From a virus (taxonomy: Duplodnaviria; Caudoviricetes), in the IMG/VR virus record IMGVR_UViG_3300027759_000001: a DNA stretch of 64,000 bases; one strand, 5' to 3'. Each line of letters begins with the position of its first letter. Position 1 is the first letter of the stretch. Below, piece by piece: positions 5,366 to 16,585 of this stretch. Position numbers and translations under genes: made by a program. Under the pieces are notes generated by a model. That model did not search any database. It saw only the letters and a list, made by a program, of their open reading frames with translations, and was not told the origin of the DNA.

Positions 5366-6444
5366 TGGGAATTTCAGTAATTATGCCAACATTTGACAAT
5401 ATTGAATATATTGACGAAACACTTGATTCAATATATAAATCAGGTAAAGATCTTGAATATGAAATTTTAATAGGTATTGATGGTTGTAATAAAAGTTTAA
5501 AATATTTAAAGGATAAGACTTATCCTGTTAATACAAAGATTTTTTTCTTCCCCACAAATAAAGGTCCTTATTTAATTAAGAATACCCTATCAACTTTGGC
5601 AAAATATGATAAATTATTGTTCTTTGATTCTGATGATATAATGGAAGAAAATATGATCGGTTATTGTTTAAATTCCCTTAATAAACACCAATGTGTTAAA
5701 CCAAGATTACATAATTTTAAAATCGTCAATGGTAAAATGGTTAATGAGGTGGGTCGTAAAAATTGGGGTGAGGGTGTTTTTGCAATAAGAAAACCTATTT
5801 TTGATTACCATAATGGATTTGAGGGATGGTTAGTTGCTGCGGATTCTGATTTTATGAATCGTTTATATAAAAATAATACCTCAGTTGATTTGACTCAGGA
5901 AATATTATTATTAAGGAGATTACACGATAAAGGGTTAACTAGTCGTCCTGATACAGGATTAAGATCTTCATTGAGATCAAAGTACGCTTCAATTAGTAAA
6001 TCAAAAAAATATTTTGGACCTTTACCTGAATTAAAAATTGCGGAATATCAACCTATAAACATTGCGGAATATACAAATAATGATATTTTTAAAGTTGGTG
6101 ATACCAATAGTGATAATGAAGAAGTAGACGATTATGTTAACACAATTAATGATAGAAAACAAATCGTAAATGATGTTATTAAAACAATTAATAACAAAAA
6201 ACAAAAACAAGAGGATGTTGTACCTGAAAAGAAAGTATCATCTATTAATTATGAAAAAGTTAATAACTTACTTAAAAATAGAGTTATCCCAAAACCAATA
6301 CCTAAAGTAATACAGGTGAATGATACTCCTGAAAATAAAAAAATTATCACAAATAAAGAAATGGTTAAGTTAACTTTTCCAAGTAAAAAAAATAGGAGGA
6401 GTGGTGATAATACGATGAGTTTTGGGGGAAAAATTAATAAATAA
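5365..6444 (+). CDS. GT2 family glycosyltransferase with C-terminal low-complexity extension
   Basis: ISVIMPTFD, EILIGIDG, NKGPY, LFFDSDD, ADSDF motifs. Confidence 0.85.
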   Translation: MGISVIMPTFDNIEYIDETLDSIYKSGKDLEYEILIGIDGCNKSLKYLKDKTYPVNTKIFFFPTNKGPYLIKNTLSTLAKYDKLLFFDSDDIMEENMIGYCLNSLNKHQCVKPRLHNFKIVNGKMVNEVGRKNWGEGVFAIRKPIFDYHNGFEGWLVAADSDFMNRLYKNNTSVDLTQEILLLRRLHDKGLTSRPDTGLRSSLRSKYASISKSKKYFGPLPELKIAEYQPINIAEYTNNDIFKVGDTNSDNEEVDDYVNTINDRKQIVNDVIKTINNKKQKQEDVVPEKKVSSINYEKVNNLLKNRVIPKPIPKVIQVNDTPENKKIITNKEMVKLTFPSKKNRRSGDNTMSFGGKINK

Positions 6445-10249: not shown

Positions 10250-10353
10250 TTTGGCAAATCAAAAGTAATTACATATATTTGTAAGACAAACAACGGGGGT
10301 AGGAAGTGAGAGGTTGGTGTCCTACTCCCGTGAAGAAAGAAGAAGTTCATTGA
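10250..10353 (+). promoter_or_regulatory. Host-type promoter with leader hairpin and boxA-like element heading the tRNA array
   Basis: TTTG 10250-10253, 20-nt spacer, TATATTTG 10274-10281; 11-bp hairpin 10294-10330; GTTCATTGA 10345-10353. Confidence 0.75.
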
Positions 10354-10555
10354 AATAGTTTGAATAAGGTAACCACGAACCCACTGGTATTAGGCGTCTC
10401 TTGAGATGGAATGCAAGACAGAGTGTAAGTCCTACCTTATTCGTTTAAAAATATTGTGGTGGTAAGAAACGGGAAACTCGTAAAGTGCATTAACCTGTTG
10501 ACATAAGATGGTGAAACGAGAGTGTGTGTCAGCTACTTAACTACAAAATTAAAAT

Positions 10556-10709
10556 AGTCAGGTGGTGGAATGTTAGACACATAGTGACACGCACGGCAAC
10601 CTTGAATAAGTGCACTTTGAAAAGGCAATGCGAATGATGAAGAACACTACCTCACTGTGCGTAGGTAAAATTCAAAGTGTTCATGCAGGTTAGAATCCTG
10701 TCCTGACTA
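10556..10709 (+). ncRNA. tRNA-like RNA with a greatly expanded anticodon domain
   Basis: Acceptor AGTCAGG/CCTGACT-A, Leu-like D arm, T arm GCAGG-TTAGAAT-CCTGT, about 100-nt central insert. Confidence 0.6.
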
Positions 10710-10785
10710 CAACTAAGGAAGCAATACGAGAGTCCTGAATTGTACACAAAATATCCGTATTGACACCTCGGAAAGACGAGAATAT

Positions 10786-10859
10786 AGTTAATTAGCTCAG
10801 TTGGTTAGAGCAATTCCCTGATACGGAATAGGTCATTGGTTCGAGTCCAATATTAACTA
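10786..10859 (+). tRNA. tRNA-Ile(GAU)
   Basis: AGTTAAT/ATTAACT acceptor; ATTCC-CTGATAC-GGAAT anticodon arm; canonical D and T arms. Confidence 0.92.
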
Positions 10860-10864
10860 CATAT

Positions 10865-10937
10865 CGCGGGATGTGGAAGATGGTTATCCGCTCGGTCTCA
10901 TAAGCCGAGATCGCAGGTTCGAATCCTGCTCCCGCAA
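10865..10937 (+). tRNA. tRNA-Met(CAU), initiator-like
   Basis: CGCGGGA/TCCCGCA with C1:A72 mismatch; TCGGT-CTCATAA-GCCGA. Confidence 0.88.
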
Positions 10938-11010
10938 CTAAAAGGGTAGAATATTCGTAAGGGCCTTTCCTGAAAGATGGCTAGCTAGGCCCGTGTCTAC
11001 CCTTATTTTT

Positions 11011-11082
11011 GGTCCCATCGACTATCGGTTAGGTCGTCAGGTTTTCATCCTGGAAAGTCGGGTTCGATTCCCGGTGGGACTA
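11011..11082 (+). tRNA. tRNA-Glu(UUC)
   Basis: GGTCCCA/TGGGACT; TCAGG-TTTTCAT-CCTGG. Confidence 0.92.
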
Positions 11083-11162
11083 CTATAGCCAACCAAGCTT
11101 TACTACGATACGGGTTCATACCTGTGGGTTAGGGGTGACGATCAGGAAAGACTGATAAACTT

Positions 11163-11235
11163 GGTCCCGTGGTTGAATGGTTACAATTCCACCCTGTCAC
11201 GGTGTGAGATACGGGTTCGAATCCCGTCGGGACCG
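11163..11235 (+). tRNA. tRNA-Asp(GUC)
   Basis: GGTCCCG/CGGGACC-G; CCACC-CTGTCAC-GGTGT. Confidence 0.92.
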
Positions 11236-11255
11236 CAAAATAATGAATAATTTTC

Positions 11256-11286
11256 ATTGCCAATTGAATTAAATGTCATATCTTTG
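11256..11286 (+). promoter_or_regulatory. Bacteroidetes-type promoter inside the tRNA array
   Basis: ATTG, 19-nt spacer, TATCTTTG (11279-11286). Confidence 0.65.
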
Positions 11287-11306
11287 TTAAACAAACAACG
11301 AGAGAT

Positions 11307-11831
11307 ATGGAAAACTTGATAAACATTTTGAAGAAAGAGACTGAAACATTAAAAGTTCAGTACATTGCTAAAACTAAAGAGTGGGCGAAAGATCAGTTCG
11401 ACGCAATTATGGTTAGATCAGGTTGGGATAACCTTCAATGGTGTAACTTTTTTGGATTGACACAAGATGTTTATAACGAAGGAAGACCTTCTGAGTTCAA
11501 GTCATTCCCAAGAGGGTTTTACAACTCTAAACAAAGTCGTGAGTATAATAACTTCAAAGACAAAGCGTCAAAAGTTAAACAAATGGGTGTTGAGGGATTC
11601 ATGTTGGCTGAAGAGAAAAAGGCTGAGTTACACTACGAAGGATCTATCGTGAAACTTGCAAACCGAATTGATAAAAAAGGTTTGATCGTAGAGAAACTTG
11701 TTGTTGAAACTTCTCACATCGGTGTTAACATCAACACAACATTGACTGACGGTGAGAAAACGGTAAGAGCGTTCACGATCATCGCATCAGGTGAGATCCA
11801 AAGACCACACTACCGGTATTTGGTAAAATAA
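11307..11831 (+). CDS. Hypothetical protein embedded in the tRNA array
   Basis: 174-aa ORF with its own host-type promoter. Confidence 0.75.
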   Translation: MENLINILKKETETLKVQYIAKTKEWAKDQFDAIMVRSGWDNLQWCNFFGLTQDVYNEGRPSEFKSFPRGFYNSKQSREYNNFKDKASKVKQMGVEGFMLAEEKKAELHYEGSIVKLANRIDKKGLIVEKLVVETSHIGVNINTTLTDGEKTVRAFTIIASGEIQRPHYRYLVK

Positions 11832-11834
11832 AAT

Positions 11835-11966
11835 AGTCAAGTGGACGTAATGAGGGATGGTCCCAAGTCCCCAAGACACCACGGTTCATAAGCATTTGGA
11901 CGCGAGAAGTCGTAAGGTTGTCTAATCCGTCTTGAACGGTATTCGGTTCGAGTCCGACCTTGACTA
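11835..11966 (+). ncRNA. tRNA-like RNA with branched D and anticodon domains
   Basis: Acceptor AGTCAAG/CTTGACT-A; T loop TTCGAGT in TCGG/CCGA; inner stems GGAC/GTCC, CAAGAC/GTCTTG, TTGGAC/GTCTAA. Confidence 0.6.
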
Positions 11967-12061
11967 CAACACATAAACTTAAGTACCCATACCGCTAACG
12001 GTGGGCTAAGTAAGATACAATTTCGTACTGCGGGAAGTAGAATGCTTAAGAGTGTGTTTAT

Positions 12062-12145
12062 AGTCAGGAGTGTAATTAGACATCGGTGTTGATCCCATCC
12101 GTTGAGGATGGTTGCTCATTGTAGGTTCGAATCCTATCCTGACTA
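12062..12145 (+). ncRNA. tRNA-like RNA without a canonical anticodon arm
   Basis: AGTCAGG/CCTGACT-A; GTAGG-TTCGAAT-CCTAT; internal CCATCC/GGATGG hairpin. Confidence 0.6.
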
Positions 12146-12306
12146 CACGTTTCGGTTCATCACCGAATAGTATGTCCAATACGATGAGAAGTGAGGTGAT
12201 ACTTCATATGGAACTGCTGATATGACAAGGTTATATCTGGTTTGACTAACCACGGGGAAGATCAAAGAGAAGTGAAGAACCAACGTACTCTCGTAAGTTA
12301 ATTTAT

Positions 12307-12396
12307 AATCAAATGGCGGAATTGGTAGACGCTACTCATCTTATTGGGGAGACCGAGTTAAAAACGGTTGTATTGGTTCGAATCCTTTTTTGATTA
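12307..12396 (+). pseudogene. Degenerate class II (Leu-like) tRNA
   Basis: TGGCGGAATTGGTAGACGC D arm and long variable arm, but poor anticodon stem and mismatched T stem. Confidence 0.55.
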
Positions 12397-12400
12397 CTCA

Positions 12401-12474
12401 GGACTTTTAGCTCAGCAGGTTAGAGCACCGCACTCATAATGCGTAGGTCCATGGTTCGAATCCATGATGGTCCA
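12401..12474 (+). tRNA. tRNA-CAU, probably Ile2 (lysidine type); elongator Met not excluded
   Basis: GGACTTT/ATGGTCC-A; CGCA-CTCATAA-TGCG; the GGACYTTTAG start resembles bacterial Ile2 tRNAs. Confidence 0.8.
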
Positions 12475-12574
12475 CAATAATAATTAATAATTGGTTAATA
12501 AACACTATTTTTACATCAATATTAATTAACTAAAACTTTAAAATTTTATTTACGTTTATATTAAAAACACCATT

Positions 12575-12667
12575 ATGACATCAGAAATAATTGCCACAAT
12601 CATTACTCCAATTATTATATTATTAACATTTACTTACTTATTTTTAAAAGATAAATGGTCCAAATGA
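12575..12667 (+). CDS. Small single-TM peptide (30 aa)
   Basis: MTSEIIATIITPIIILLTFTYLFLKDKWSK, directly upstream of holin candidates. Confidence 0.45.
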   Translation: MTSEIIATIITPIIILLTFTYLFLKDKWSK

Positions 12668-12716
12668 TGTTTTTGAAATATTTATTGTTATAAATAAACT
12701 TTTAAAAACAAAAATT

Positions 12717-12890
12717 ATGAAATTTTCTAAAGAACAACTTTTGGGTATTGTAAGACACTCATTAACATTTATCGGTGGTATTTTTATTACAAAAGGACTT
12801 ATTGATGAAAGTATTTTAAATGAAGTAATCGGTGGTGCAATTGCTCTAACAGGTGCAATTTGGTCAATTGTTGTAAAAAACAAAGCTTAA
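12717..12890 (+). CDS. Putative small holin (Pam3-gp28-like, 57 aa, not in ORF track)
   Basis: MKFSKEQLLGIVRHSLTFIGGIFITKGLIDESILNEVIGGAIALTGAIWSIVVKNKA; two hydrophobic helices. Confidence 0.6.
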   Translation: MKFSKEQLLGIVRHSLTFIGGIFITKGLIDESILNEVIGGAIALTGAIWSIVVKNKA

Positions 12891-12910
12891 ATTTTATTAG
12901 AATAAAAGTA

Positions 12911-12938
12911 AAACCCACCCACAAGGTGGGTTTTTTTG
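12911..12938 (+). terminator. Intrinsic terminator
   Basis: AACCCACC-CACAA-GGTGGGTT followed by a T tract. Confidence 0.85.
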
Positions 12939-12983
12939 TTATGTGATTTTATTTTTTTAATTTGTTAGGTATTTATTAATTAT

Positions 12984-13598
12984 ATGTTTGAAAATATGAC
13001 AGGAATTATTATTGCGTTTATAACAGGTGTTATAGGTCCGATCCTTTTACTTTACATAAAAAGTAAATTAGAAAAGAAAAAAGATAAGCCAGATATGGTT
13101 AGAGAAACTCTTCGTGTGAGTGAGTTGGTAACAACAAAAATAGAACACATAAAGGAAGAATTTGATGCCGATCGTGTTTGGATAACCCAATTCCACAATG
13201 GTGGTAATTTCTACCCAACGGGTAAATCAATGGCAAAGTTCTCAATAATGTATGAAACGGTTCATCCTGGAGTACCATCGGTACAAAGTAATTTTCATAA
13301 TATTCCCGTTAATCTATTTTCAAAATCAATAAATGAATTATTAAGTAATGATCTTATTCAAATTTCAGATTATAAAGACGAAACTATTGCAACTTTTGGA
13401 TTGAAGTATATTGCTGAAGACACGGGATGTAAATCAGGTTATTTATTTGCAATTAAAACAATTGATGATAAGTTCATTGGAACTTTAGGTTTGGATTATA
13501 CAAAACGTAAGAAGAAATTGGACATGGAATCAATTAATCACCTACAAGTTCACGCAACCTCTTTGGGTGGTGTTCTTATGACACATTTAGAACAATAA
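12984..13598 (+). CDS. Single-TM protein with GAF-like domain (T4 holin T-like architecture)
   Basis: N-terminal TM helix; ADRVWITQFHNG..FIGTLGLDY GAF-like strand pattern; adjacent to amidase. Confidence 0.55.
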   Translation: MFENMTGIIIAFITGVIGPILLLYIKSKLEKKKDKPDMVRETLRVSELVTTKIEHIKEEFDADRVWITQFHNGGNFYPTGKSMAKFSIMYETVHPGVPSVQSNFHNIPVNLFSKSINELLSNDLIQISDYKDETIATFGLKYIAEDTGCKSGYLFAIKTIDDKFIGTLGLDYTKRKKKLDMESINHLQVHATSLGGVLMTHLEQ

Positions 13599-13606
13599 AA
13601 AAATTT

Positions 13607-14440
13607 ATGAAAAATGATTTTATTTTATTAGAACACTTAAAAGTTTTACAACAAAAACTTTCATCTACTGAAGTACCCAATAGACCTAAATATCTAAATG
13701 AGTCTTCTTTACAAATTACAGATATATCTGGAGAATCAAAATTTAAAGGAAAACAATTTAGCCCTAAATATTTTTTAATACATCACACGGCAGGTAAAGG
13801 AACTCCTTCTCAAGTTGTTAAAATTTTAAATTGTAGACACTACAATGGTAGTTCAAAATGTACTACTTTAGGAATTCAATGGATTATAGATAGAGATGGT
13901 AAATTATATCAAGCGTTACCAAAAGGTTCTAAGGGTGCTCATGTTGCATCTCAAAAATCAGGTATGGAACACATAAATAATTCAAGTGCAGAAGGTGTTG
14001 AAATTATTGGGTCAAACGATGATGATATTACAATTAAACAATGTAAAACGGCATTGATATTAATTAAAAGTTTGGGGTATTCACTATCAAATGTGTTTGG
14101 TCATGGGGAGGTATCCACAAATAAACAGGCAACTGAAGGTAAAAAATGTAAAACATACGCCACTAAATATTGGAATACACCTGAAGACGAATTACCCGGA
14201 GGTAACGATAAAGAAGATGAAGACAAAAAAGACAATGTAACCACTACAACTACTGATACTTCCAAATCTTCCACTAATGATGAGGTTGATGTTGAAGATA
14301 ATACTAATGTGGCAACTAGCACCACAACTGAAAAAGGTAGTTTTCTTGACTTTTTTAAAAACCTTGGGGGTGTATTAAAAAAGAAAGAAGACTTAAAAAT
14401 AGAAGAAGACGTACAACGGATTAAAAATTTATTAAAATAA
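13607..14440 (+). CDS. N-acetylmuramoyl-L-alanine amidase (Amidase_2), endolysin or virion lysin
   Basis: FLIHHTAG, QWIIDRDG, GAHV, SAEGVE, GHGE motifs; Thr/Asp-rich linker. Confidence 0.85.
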   Translation: MKNDFILLEHLKVLQQKLSSTEVPNRPKYLNESSLQITDISGESKFKGKQFSPKYFLIHHTAGKGTPSQVVKILNCRHYNGSSKCTTLGIQWIIDRDGKLYQALPKGSKGAHVASQKSGMEHINNSSAEGVEIIGSNDDDITIKQCKTALILIKSLGYSLSNVFGHGEVSTNKQATEGKKCKTYATKYWNTPEDELPGGNDKEDEDKKDNVTTTTTDTSKSSTNDEVDVEDNTNVATSTTTEKGSFLDFFKNLGGVLKKKEDLKIEEDVQRIKNLLK

Positions 14441-14452
14441 TTACCAAACCCA

Positions 14453-14508
14453 TTTGTTTTATCGGATTAAATATACTATCTTTGTGGTATAATTAAAAAG
14501 TTCATTAA
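14453..14508 (+). promoter_or_regulatory. Host-type promoter with downstream boxA-like 9-mer
   Basis: TTTG 14453-14456, 20-nt spacer, TATCTTTG 14477-14484; GTTCATTAA 14500-14508. Confidence 0.7.
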
Positions 14509-14533
14509 TTTATTAACCTTTAAAAATCAACAA

Positions 14534-14680
14534 ATGAGTGATGAAACTCAAGTATTGGTTAACTATACTTTCTACTATTATGACAATAATGGTAAGAAAT
14601 ATACAACACCAAACTCATCTTTTGCTGAAGCAAGAGCGTATTACTACGGTACGGAAACAGTGTACATAGAAAAATATTAA
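14534..14680 (+). CDS. Small hypothetical protein (48 aa)
   Basis: MSDETQVLVNYTFYYYDNNGKKYTTPNSSFAEARAYYYGTETVYIEKY, behind its own promoter. Confidence 0.6.
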   Translation: MSDETQVLVNYTFYYYDNNGKKYTTPNSSFAEARAYYYGTETVYIEKY

Positions 14681-14698
14681 AAAAAAATTTACATATAA

Positions 14699-14850
14699 TT
14701 TGACAAATGAAAAAAATGTCTTATTTTTGTAAAACAAATTCGGAAACGTCCGAATAAAAAAAATAAAAAAGATTAGAAAAAATTTGGAAAATTCAAAAAG
14801 TATTCTTAACTTTGTAAAACAAATCGGAAACGTCCGATAACGTTCTTTGA
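14699..14850 (+). promoter_or_regulatory. Tandem P1/P2 host-type promoters, each followed by the same hairpin, then boxA (rrn-leader-like)
   Basis: TTTG-N19-TATTTTTG (14699-14729) and TTTG-N20-TAACTTTG (14783-14814); hairpins TTCGGA-AACG-TCCGAA and ATCGGA-AACG-TCCGAT; GTTCTTTGA 14842-14850. Confidence 0.8.
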
Positions 14851-14854
14851 AATT

Positions 14855-15768
14855 TTAGATATTATCCGTTCAGGAAACACAAAAGTGTCGGTGACATTAT
14901 CCACCGAGTAAATGGCAGAAAGTCCGCAGCTTGAGTGTAACTGATAAAGATATTGGGCCGTGTATAGTCCATAAAATAAACTACGAAAGTAGGATAAAGT
15001 GAACCCCCAAGTGTAACGGGTTTGCGTCTTGATGATCTTCGGATCATTGAGGTCAAGTACACAGGCGAGATACCATAAGATCTTTAGTACCGAGGCCAAC
15101 GGTGTAGGGAAAGTGATTTTATGACGAGGTGATGTGGGTCATCTTGTTGAGGAGGGAACTCCAATAGGAATAACTCGTAGGGACGTTGCAAGAATCAATA
15201 TTTCCAATGTTGTTATTGCGGATCCCAGTATCAGAGGATACTTAAAACCGAAAGGTATGTTAATGTACGGGTGGTGCCGTTATTAACCTTAACCAACTTC
15301 TACCAAGGGGTTAGTTTCGAAGTAGTCTTGAAATATTGAAATGGGGACATTTCACGGAGTTGTTTGGTATTTTGTTATTCAAAAGATAATGAAGCTTAAG
15401 ACGGACCACAACTTTGAACAATCCACGACACAAAAACTTTAATGTTAATGAAGTAACATTTATAAACTATAAAGCAAAAGTGTTCGTCACGATATAACGG
15501 AAGTTACCCACCTATTCACTGGCAGTCAGTGGAACGTGATAACCGCAAGTTTGACCGTATTTTTATGAAAAATCTCTAGGTCGTCGAAGACCGAATCAGG
15601 ACGCAATCTTGAGGAGACAGGAGTAGTAAGAGAGTAGTTGTATCGTCAAGGAGTGATTGGTCTAACCAATCGGTAATGAGTGTTACAGGACAAAATCCTG
15701 TGGATAAGAGTAGAACCAATAATGACTCAAAAGACACTTACAAAAACTGTAATCTCAGGTTTTTTTTT
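14855..15768 (+). ncRNA. Large structured non-coding RNA, about 900 nt (GOLLD-sized; family not identified)
   Basis: No credible ORF, GC-richer than flanks, many GNRA/UUCG-capped hairpins, dedicated promoters, ends at a T tract. Confidence 0.75.
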
Positions 15769-15796
15769 AACATAAACTTTAAATTCAATTGAAAGC

Positions 15797-15982
15797 ATGC
15801 AAAAATTAATTATCTTATCTATCGTTCTTTTTACGACAATCACTCTTATGACGGCTTGTGGTGAAAACGGAAATAGATCCACAACTGATGCTTCGACTGA
15901 AGTTTCAAGTGAAGATGTAACAAATGTATCGGATTCTACTTTAACAACAACTGAAGTTGTTTCTGACACAACAAAAAAATAA
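15797..15982 (+). CDS. Small Ser/Thr-rich lipoprotein
   Basis: MQKLIILSIVLFTTITLMTAC lipobox; low-complexity tail. Confidence 0.7.
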   Translation: MQKLIILSIVLFTTITLMTACGENGNRSTTDASTEVSSEDVTNVSDSTLTTTEVVSDTTKK

Positions 15983-16004: not shown

Positions 16005-16030
16005 AACCTACCTTTTGGTGGGTTTTTTTA
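16005..16030 (+). terminator. Intrinsic terminator
   Basis: AACCTACC-TTTT-GGTGGGTT followed by a T tract. Confidence 0.8.
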
Positions 16031-16080
16031 TGCACTAAAATATAATATTCATACAACACTAAAATATAATTATAGTGCAT

Positions 16081-16113: not shown

Positions 16114-16523
16114 TGGTGGAGGTGCGGAGGCTCGAACTCCGGTCCATAATATCCTGTCAGATAAGGACTACACGTTTAGGTTGGTATTTTCTAATACCCC
16201 AAAATATTTGGTTTTAATTTGACCAAAAACAAAGTTGATTTGTTCTTCACCATCGTAAATCAACAACCAATGGACGACTCGATTTATGGTTCAATTGTAT
16301 TCCACCATAAAGACTTCTGTTGCTAGGTTATGTGTCCACCGACCCCCCGTTTCCGTAAACCTCTTAGGCTACAGTAACTTCAGATTCTCTTAGTAAACCA
16401 AGAGTTTCCATTTTCGATAAAACGTCGCCGATTGTTTTTGTGAATCAGTTTTTAAGGAGATTAATTCAGTCTCCACGTGCCCTTTGTCTTCAGCCAATAC
16501 CTGTCAAATCCAAAAACACCCCC
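16114..16523 (-). ncRNA. ssrA: tmRNA (about 410 nt)
   Basis: 5' GGGGGTGTTTTTGGATTTGACAGG; acceptor GGGGGTG/CACCTCC-ACCA with G3.U70; T arm CGGAG-TTCGAGC-CTCCG; tag frame 16429-16364. Confidence 0.95.
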
Positions 16524-16554
16524 ATATGTCAAATAACTTATTATATTATAAATA

Positions 16555-16585
16555 CAAAGATAAGTGTAAACCTACAATAATCAAA
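16555..16585 (-). promoter_or_regulatory. Host-type promoter for tmRNA
   Basis: Minus strand TTTG (16585-16582), 19-nt spacer, TATCTTTG (16562-16555). Confidence 0.75.

Follow-up and report, generated by a model that had tools for sequence, protein, structure and literature searches.

The 64,000-nucleotide (nt) stretch analyzed here, referred to as the window (virus record IMGVR_UViG_3300027759_000001; Caudoviricetes), carries two copies of an 11-mer that is identical to boxA, the antitermination element of ribosomal RNA (rrn) operons, as it occurs in Bacteroidota. One copy lies at 10345 in the leader of a transfer RNA (tRNA) block and the other at 14842, at the 5' edge of the large structured RNA known as GOLLD. 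Both copies have the sequence of the host signal, occupy its position on the transcribed strand and are conserved among related phages. We consider it likely, with a probability of about 0.7, that the two 11-mers are genuine boxA elements from the rRNA operons of the host phylum and that a Nus-modified polymerase transcribes the phage RNAs; we strongly infer that they use the host's NusB/S10, and this would bring about antitermination and help the RNA to fold. A preliminary description of this DNA had read the same places as phage copies of the rrn antitermination architecture, and every promoter, hairpin and boxA word that it listed was recovered in its place.

The window comes from a large, uncultured Bacteroidota phage. 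The closest related record compared (G001) shows 90-99% identity to it, and the complete relatives measure 304-318 kilobases (kb), so the window is a piece of a jumbo phage. RNA genes cluster at 10.2-16.6 kb, where ARAGORN and Rfam placed a block of tRNA and tRNA-like genes, GOLLD and, on the opposite strand, a transfer-messenger RNA (tmRNA). The RNA of about 900 nt at 14853-15761 (+), with a conserved 3' domain at 15355-15761, was identified as GOLLD by its match to Rfam RF02032 (290.6 bits against a gathering score of 150, E-value 5e-82, model positions 1-416 of 416). Few bacterial or phage RNAs are as large and elaborate as GOLLD, which assembles into a 14-mer nanocage (PMC12286853).

Position of the boxA words and their match to host rRNA operons

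The 9-mers at issue are GTTCATTGA at 10345, GTTCTTTGA at 14842 and a third boxA-like word, GTTCATTAA, at 14500; two further copies of the 9-mer, at 5619 and 38538, fall in apparent coding sequence. Of the extended 11-mer GTTCWTTGAAA, the 64 kb contain just two copies; both are on the plus strand, and each directly follows a promoter that heads a block of non-coding RNA. The copies start 63 nt past the -7 box at 10274-10281 and 27 nt past the -7 box at 14807-14814, respectively. As approximately 0.7% of strand positions fall within 70 nt 3' of a consensus promoter, finding two of two there by chance would be expected about 4 times in 100,000 by rough arithmetic. Both sites lie on the transcribed strand, 3' of a promoter and 5' of the RNA, with start sites inferred from the consensus. 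The promoters themselves are of a type that is frequent in the window, where the Bacteroidota consensus TTTG-N18-21-TAnnTTTG matched 12 times against an expectation of 4.4 ± 2.2; none of 100 shuffled sequences reached 12. Read as RNA, the word is GUUCUUUGAAA with the core UCUUU, and the variant words are GUUCAUUGAAA, GUUCUUAGAAA and GUUAUUUGACA.

The first tRNA and structured-RNA block is headed by a Bacteroidota-type promoter at 10250-10281 (+) that matches TTTG-N20-TAnnTTTG and is conserved in four relatives (G001, G002, G004 and G006). It is followed by a leader hairpin at 10293-10331 (+) with a stem of 11-12 base pairs (bp; GGGGGTAGGA / TCCTACTCCC; RNAfold -21.3 kcal/mol, z-score -3.07), an A/G-rich spacer and the first boxA copy, GTTCATTGAAA, at 10345-10355 (+), which is of the leader type and matches the Bacteroidota rrn leader boxA exactly. 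The hairpin and boxA are nearly identical in G002, G003 and G004, and in the complete relative G054 the stem is the same, the loop is different and boxA reads GTTCTTTGAAA, so that the tRNA-leader boxA is found in the window and in four of the six relatives examined.

The GOLLD leader begins with two promoters. The upstream promoter P1 (14699-14729, +; consensus match) is followed by TAAAACAAA and a 7-bp hairpin (14738-14755; -7.7 kcal/mol, z-score -3.48) and has no boxA of its own. The downstream promoter P2 (14783-14814, +; consensus match) is likewise followed by TAAAACAAA and by a 6-bp hairpin recognized by folding (14823-14838; -6.8 kcal/mol), whose z-score of -1.09 is not significant by itself and is backed by the relatives. 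The second boxA copy, GTTCTTTGAAA, follows at 14842-14852 (+) on the 5' edge of GOLLD and is identical to the rrn leader boxA.

We compared the phage words with the host phylum by gathering 120 Bacteroidota rrn loci with a 22-nt anchor that matches the 16S rRNA 5' end; 101 of these had at least 300 nt of upstream sequence. The 9-mer GTTCWTTGA was found 88-275 nt 5' of the anchor in 56 of the 101 leaders, against a background of 0.0106 per 260 nt. Among the remaining hits in the rrn loci, 42 of 51 lay at +1611 to +2364 on the same strand, which places them in the 16S-23S spacer. A copy in the leader and a copy in the spacer is the classical distribution of boxA. The Bacteroidota boxA can accordingly be written GTTCWTTGA(A/C)A, with the leader consensus aaaaAGTTCTTTGAaa and the spacer consensus AAGTTCWTTGACATATTGg; the T and A variants of the window boxA are both common among the rrn words. 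The window 11-mers at 10345 and 14842 are exact matches to this rrn consensus of the phylum, and the proposal that the 9-mers correspond to the rrn boxA of the host phylum was borne out for the leader and the spacer versions alike. The word agrees with the boxA of Bacillus subtilis, AUGAUCUUUGAAA, at 10 of 11 positions and with that of Escherichia coli, UGCUCUUUAACA, at 8 of 11 (consensus from PMC13753749); the B. subtilis boxA is reported to bind NusB (PMC13753749).

The order of elements is shared as well. A TAnnTTTG box lies 12-142 nt 5' of boxA in 51 of the 56 host rrn leaders, and rrn transcripts often begin with a hairpin, after which come an A-rich stretch and boxA (L016, L024, L036 and L073). 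The order of promoter, 5' hairpin, A-rich spacer and boxA in the phage is therefore also the order of Bacteroidota rrn leaders. Similarly, the B. subtilis rrn operons carry a small 5'-terminal hairpin with boxA directly after it (PMC13753749).

Conservation of boxA at phage RNA genes

We collected GOLLD loci with a pattern of conserved 3'-domain words and recovered at least 76 viral contigs that fall into two classes. The Bacteroidota-type class (29-34% G+C) comprises 39 listed loci, 33 of which have enough upstream sequence. Among the matches listed, 28 of the 33 loci carry an exact GTTCTTTGA(A/C)A and 4 of the 33 carry GTTCTTAGAAA, with one mismatch, and all 32 words lie 556-635 nt 5' of the same GOLLD anchor. 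The sole exception, L200, has 46% G+C and evidently represents another lineage. In 24 of 28 distinct leaders, the window included, the -7 box lies 26-28 nt 5' of boxA, and nearly all of these 24 leaders form a 5-6 bp hairpin that begins 8-9 nt past the -7 box. The 5' domain of GOLLD is just 65-91% identical to the window across the same loci. As boxA is kept while this domain drifts, boxA must be under stronger constraint than the RNA that it precedes. It lies about 8 nt 5' of the first conserved GOLLD segment, ATTATCCGTTCAGG. With respect to conservation in relatives, the preliminary description thus holds for the GOLLD copy (32 of 33 listed loci), holds in part for the tRNA copy (four of six), and fails for the word at 14500, which is taken up below.

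The same signal was found at other RNA genes. The phage tmRNA (16523-16114, minus strand; within 16114..16585; Rfam RF00023, 105.8 bits) has its own Bacteroidota-type promoter at 16585-16555, followed by the degenerate boxA GTTATTTGACA at 16537-16527, a one-mismatch word that ends 3 nt 5' of the tmRNA. In six relatives the promoter is followed by approximately 17 nt, then by GTTCTTTGATT, GTTCTTTGATA or GTTCTTTGAAA, and then by the 5' end of the tmRNA; the degenerate copy in the window is probably a genuine boxA too. We also noted that GTTCTTTGA lies just 5' of the tmRNA gene in some host Bacteroidota, with exact copies in 4 of 34 genes and near-matches in several more; at loci L222, L226 and L246 it abuts the GGGG 5' end, and near-matches stand at L224, L228, L232 and L234. 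The presence of boxA at ssrA may therefore be a trait of the hosts as well.

In the complete 304-kb genome G054, all four exact words are on the sense strand and lie in leaders or spacers of RNA genes: in the GOLLD leader, in the homologue of the window tRNA leader with its 11-bp hairpin, behind a promoter ahead of a tRNA-Leu gene, and at a site inside a tRNA array. A 20-kb tRNA region of G006 carries four exact copies, all on the RNA strand, and the spacer form of boxA occurs inside the phage tRNA arrays of relatives. Beyond the relatives, an exact 17-mer of the rrn spacer type, GTTCWTTGACATATTGG, was found in at least 115 IMG/VR viral contigs (L255-L369). In 48 of these a tRNA gene lies within 60 nt on the same strand, usually 7-14 nt downstream and typically as the first of an array, and 39 further contigs have same-strand tRNAs within 2.5 kb. 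No opposite-strand tRNA was found within 2.5 kb in any of these contigs. None of them has a 16S 3' end upstream of the 17-mer, so they are not fragments of host rrn operons.

Leader hairpins, tandem promoters and neighboring genes

The difference between the two GOLLD hairpins in the window, a T-A pair in one and an A-T pair in the other, had been described as a compensatory change and is real. Across the GOLLD loci the hairpin covaries, with the stems UCGGA/UCCGA, UCAGGA/UCCUGA, UGAGG/CCUCA, UUAAGG/CCUUAA and UUCGG/CCGAA, and UUUGGA/UCCAAA in upstream copies. A MAFFT alignment of the leaders mis-registered the 3' arm of the hairpin where a base was inserted; the stems were therefore listed by folding each leader, and pairs were not counted on the alignment.

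The reading of this hairpin as a boxB coupled to boxA was rejected. The same cassette, TAAAACAA plus hairpin, stands without boxA before a small open reading frame (ORF) in six relatives (L135, L139, L145, L161, L169 and L189), and P1 of the window likewise has a hairpin without boxA ahead of P2. The hairpin is therefore part of a promoter cassette and not a dedicated boxB. It is more likely a stabilizer of the 5' end or a general leader element, and a stem-loop that would stabilize the 5' end is the reading we prefer.

The hairpins might also act on the minus strand as weak terminators against antisense transcription from the convergent tmRNA and lipoprotein genes, which we regard as very improbable. 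On that strand TTGTTTTACA comes after each hairpin, and a terminator scan detects both; the stems are just 6-7 bp (-6.8 to -7.7 kcal/mol), the T-run is interrupted, and in relatives the same cassette stands before the small ORF with different neighbors.

The tandem promoters had been likened to the P1/P2 pair of rrn operons, and this part of the comparison did not hold. They arose through an 84-nt duplication that is present only in the window and in L148, L158, L160 and L185; G001 and most other relatives have a single GOLLD promoter. The duplication is recent and confined to a subclade, and the phage leaders differ from rrn operons in having no conserved P1/P2 pair.

The third boxA-like 9-mer, GTTCATTAA, is present at 14500-14508 (+) as described, behind a promoter at 14453-14484 that fits the consensus and heads a 48-amino-acid (aa) ORF (the unit spans 14453-14508). 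As a boxA it was rejected: more distant relatives read ATTGAAATA, GTTTATTTA or GTTTTTTAA at this place, and the adjacent ATTAACCTTTAAA alone is conserved. Since the word is not conserved, it probably does not belong to the boxA system. The 48-aa ORF itself (MSDETQVLVNYTFYYYDNNGKKYTTPN...VYIEKY; 14534-14680, +) lies directly 5' of GOLLD, with the conserved ATTAACCTTTAAA in its leader. Most of the Bacteroidota-type GOLLD loci among the matches listed have a homologue (...YGT..VY.EK) in the corresponding position, and the product of the ORF is a possible candidate for a GOLLD partner protein.

Several other features were seen in the RNA gene cluster. Shortly behind the tRNA-block boxA lies an 83-nt segment (10361-10443, +) whose ends pair in a perfect 10-bp stem (GAATAAGGTA/TACCTTATTC). 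The window and G002 have this segment, G003 and G004 lack precisely this piece, and it therefore behaves as an indel cassette; its fold was no better than that of shuffled sequences (z-score -0.85) and was not retained as significant. Canonical tRNA genes for Ile, Met, Glu and Asp follow 3' of this leader (10786-11236, +; ARAGORN and Rfam). At 10560-10715, 11845-11970 and 12064-12146 (+) lie tRNA-like genes with large insertions and a common acceptor/T-arm that ends ...GGTT(A/C)GA(A/G)TCC...CTGACTACA, none of which was called by ARAGORN, and an odd 91-nt tRNA-Asn(att) was called at 12307-12397. Between GOLLD and the tmRNA we found an ORF of 80 aa with an N-terminus resembling a signal peptide or lipoprotein (15727-15969, minus strand) and a terminator-like hairpin around 16020-16040.

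Proposed mechanism, alternatives and significance

We propose that boxA is transcribed within the leader RNA by host RNA polymerase from host-type promoters (sigma-A, Bacteroidota consensus). The nascent boxA RNA would be bound by host NusB-S10, by analogy to the rrn operons of E. coli and B. subtilis, and NusA, NusG and accessory factors would join to form a fast elongation complex that resists Rho and assists folding. The modified polymerase could then cross approximately 1-2.6 kb of untranslated structured RNA, that is, GOLLD, the tRNA blocks and the tmRNA. In E. coli, the rrn complex renders the polymerase resistant to Rho and helps the RNA to fold. A scan of five related phage records, of which two are complete, detected neither a NusG nor a NusB domain; the window's own proteins were outside that scan. 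The residues of the NusB-S10 interface are reported to be conserved in Bacteroidota (PMC13753749).

The phage leaders resemble bacterial rrn operons (NusB-S10, NusA, NusG and SuhB) in the core word, in the order of the elements, in the long untranslated structured RNA downstream and in the use of both leader-type and spacer-type boxA. They differ in being encoded by a phage and in heading GOLLD, tRNA blocks and tmRNA, and no equivalent of boxC has been defined in the phage. With the nut sites of phage lambda they share a boxA that adjoins a small hairpin in a phage leader. In lambda, boxA comes first and boxB second. Here the hairpin precedes boxA, as in rrn, and also occurs without it; its loops are AACG, AAAG, AAUG or GAAA, unlike those of a lambda-type nut site. 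An N-like protein was not identified either, though no search aimed at one was made. In the early region of T7, boxA lies behind the host-polymerase promoters A1-A3, and the passage that describes it (PMC3709561, citing Savalia 2010) does not mention an N protein. The likeness to T7, as far as that passage goes, is a phage-borne boxA 3' of promoters read by host RNA polymerase; T7 is an E. coli phage with boxA at early protein genes, whereas the present words belong to Bacteroidota phages and precede non-coding RNA genes. Use of boxA outside rrn is also described for Gammaproteobacteria, where boxA upstream of CRISPR (clustered regularly interspaced short palindromic repeat) arrays and suhB shields untranslated or poorly translated RNA from Rho, according to work cited in PMC13753749; as summarized there, those cases concern another phylum, chromosomal genes and other downstream RNAs.

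Several observations weigh against our interpretation. The 9-mer GTTCWTTGA is not enriched in the window, with 4 copies against 2.2 expected and 19 of 100 shuffles reaching 4; its significance therefore rests on position and on the relatives and not on the count. The transcription start sites are deduced from the promoter consensus. In G001 and G006 the hairpin and boxA are missing at the homologous tRNA-block promoter, which runs straight into the downstream RNA, so this boxA is dispensable in these two phages, though conserved elsewhere. Deviant words also occur: one clade of GOLLD loci reads GTTCTTAGAAA, and the tmRNA copy of the window reads GTTATTTGACA. The Lactobacillales-type GOLLD loci (approximately 40% G+C; 31 non-redundant loci listed) have no boxA-like word within 1200 nt upstream, from which it follows that boxA is not intrinsic to GOLLD and is an adaptation to the host transcription system. 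Our literature search recovered no binding or read-through experiment on this motif in any Bacteroidota, and Rho may in any case load poorly on the highly structured GOLLD.

We weighed four other explanations of the words and hairpins, including the minus-strand terminators discussed above, and all four are weaker than the identification of the 11-mers as boxA. The one that survives best, though still unlikely, is that the word is a signal for the processing or maturation of stable-RNA precursors, a recognition or spacer element for cleavage of the leader near sites of RNase III, RNase E or RNase P, which rrn operons and phage RNA genes would have in common and which would work without Nus factors. 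The word stands 3-14 nt before mature 5' ends (of the tmRNA in the window and its relatives, and of tRNAs in many viral contigs), and at some host tmRNA genes GTTCTTTGA abuts the GGGG 5' end. The spacing to the next mature RNA end, however, varies between 3 nt and over 100 nt, which is ill-suited to a ruler for a cleavage site, and the word closely resembles the boxA sequences that are reported to bind NusB in E. coli and B. subtilis (PMC13753749; PMC3177189).

We consider it distinctly unlikely that the words are functionless passengers, captured with the flanks of host rrn or tRNA operons or spread by a duplicated promoter cassette. The tRNA-array module does behave as an indel, and the promoter cassette is visibly duplicated inside phage genomes. 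Against this, GOLLD does not belong to the host genes, and its boxA is invariant although identity in the flanks and the 5' domain falls to 65%; the orientation of boxA is always sense.

A pairing of the GOLLD-proximal word with UCAAGGAGUG, a conserved single-stranded junction in the 3' domain, as part of the GOLLD fold, was rejected as the least probable of all: the 10-bp complement (three G-U pairs) keeps a constant position in nearly all listed loci, but both partners are invariant and show no covariation, the U-to-A variant (GTTCTTAGAAA) is uncompensated in L142 and L156, the Lactobacillales GOLLDs keep the junction without boxA, chance alone would give about 0.3 runs of 10 pairs with G-U per sequence (our own estimate), and the word stands before tRNAs and the tmRNA as well. 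The junction, (U)CAAGGAGUG, is itself invariant at about 15640-15660 (+) and in all GOLLD loci listed; it resembles a Shine-Dalgarno word, and in some relatives the 5' domain holds another copy.

Returning to boxA as a Nus-factor signal, a more far-reaching version can be formulated. Since boxA lies so close to the first conserved GOLLD segment, it may remain on the mature RNA. The 14-mer cage would then display 14 NusB/S10 sites, and abundant boxA-tagged RNAs could drain antitermination factors or S10 from the host. We hold this to be improbable; if true, host ribosome synthesis would be shut down in infection, besides or instead of phage transcription being served.

The cryo-electron microscopy paper on GOLLD mentions neither boxA nor termination (PMC12286853), and full-text literature searches returned nothing relevant that connects boxA or antitermination to GOLLD or to phage tRNA arrays; a BLAST search with the leaders as queries found no useful relatives among cultured-phage records. 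The degenerate boxA before the phage tmRNA and the exact spacer-type 17-mer that heads tRNA arrays in viral contigs are new. The comparison also yields a defined boxA consensus for Bacteroidota, a phylum for which we found no experimental study of rrn antitermination in the literature, and the 17-mer can be used to recognize uncultured phages with Bacteroidota hosts and to mark where phage RNA operons start.

The conserved leader of host rRNA type provides the first concrete, testable statement on how GOLLD is made: in Bacteroidota phages it is probably produced as a stable RNA, from host-type promoters and by a Nus-modified polymerase. Jumbo phages of a phylum that is prominent in the environment and the gut systematically place the boxA of their hosts before tRNA arrays and tmRNA, which would extend boxA-dependent transcription to phage RNA genes.

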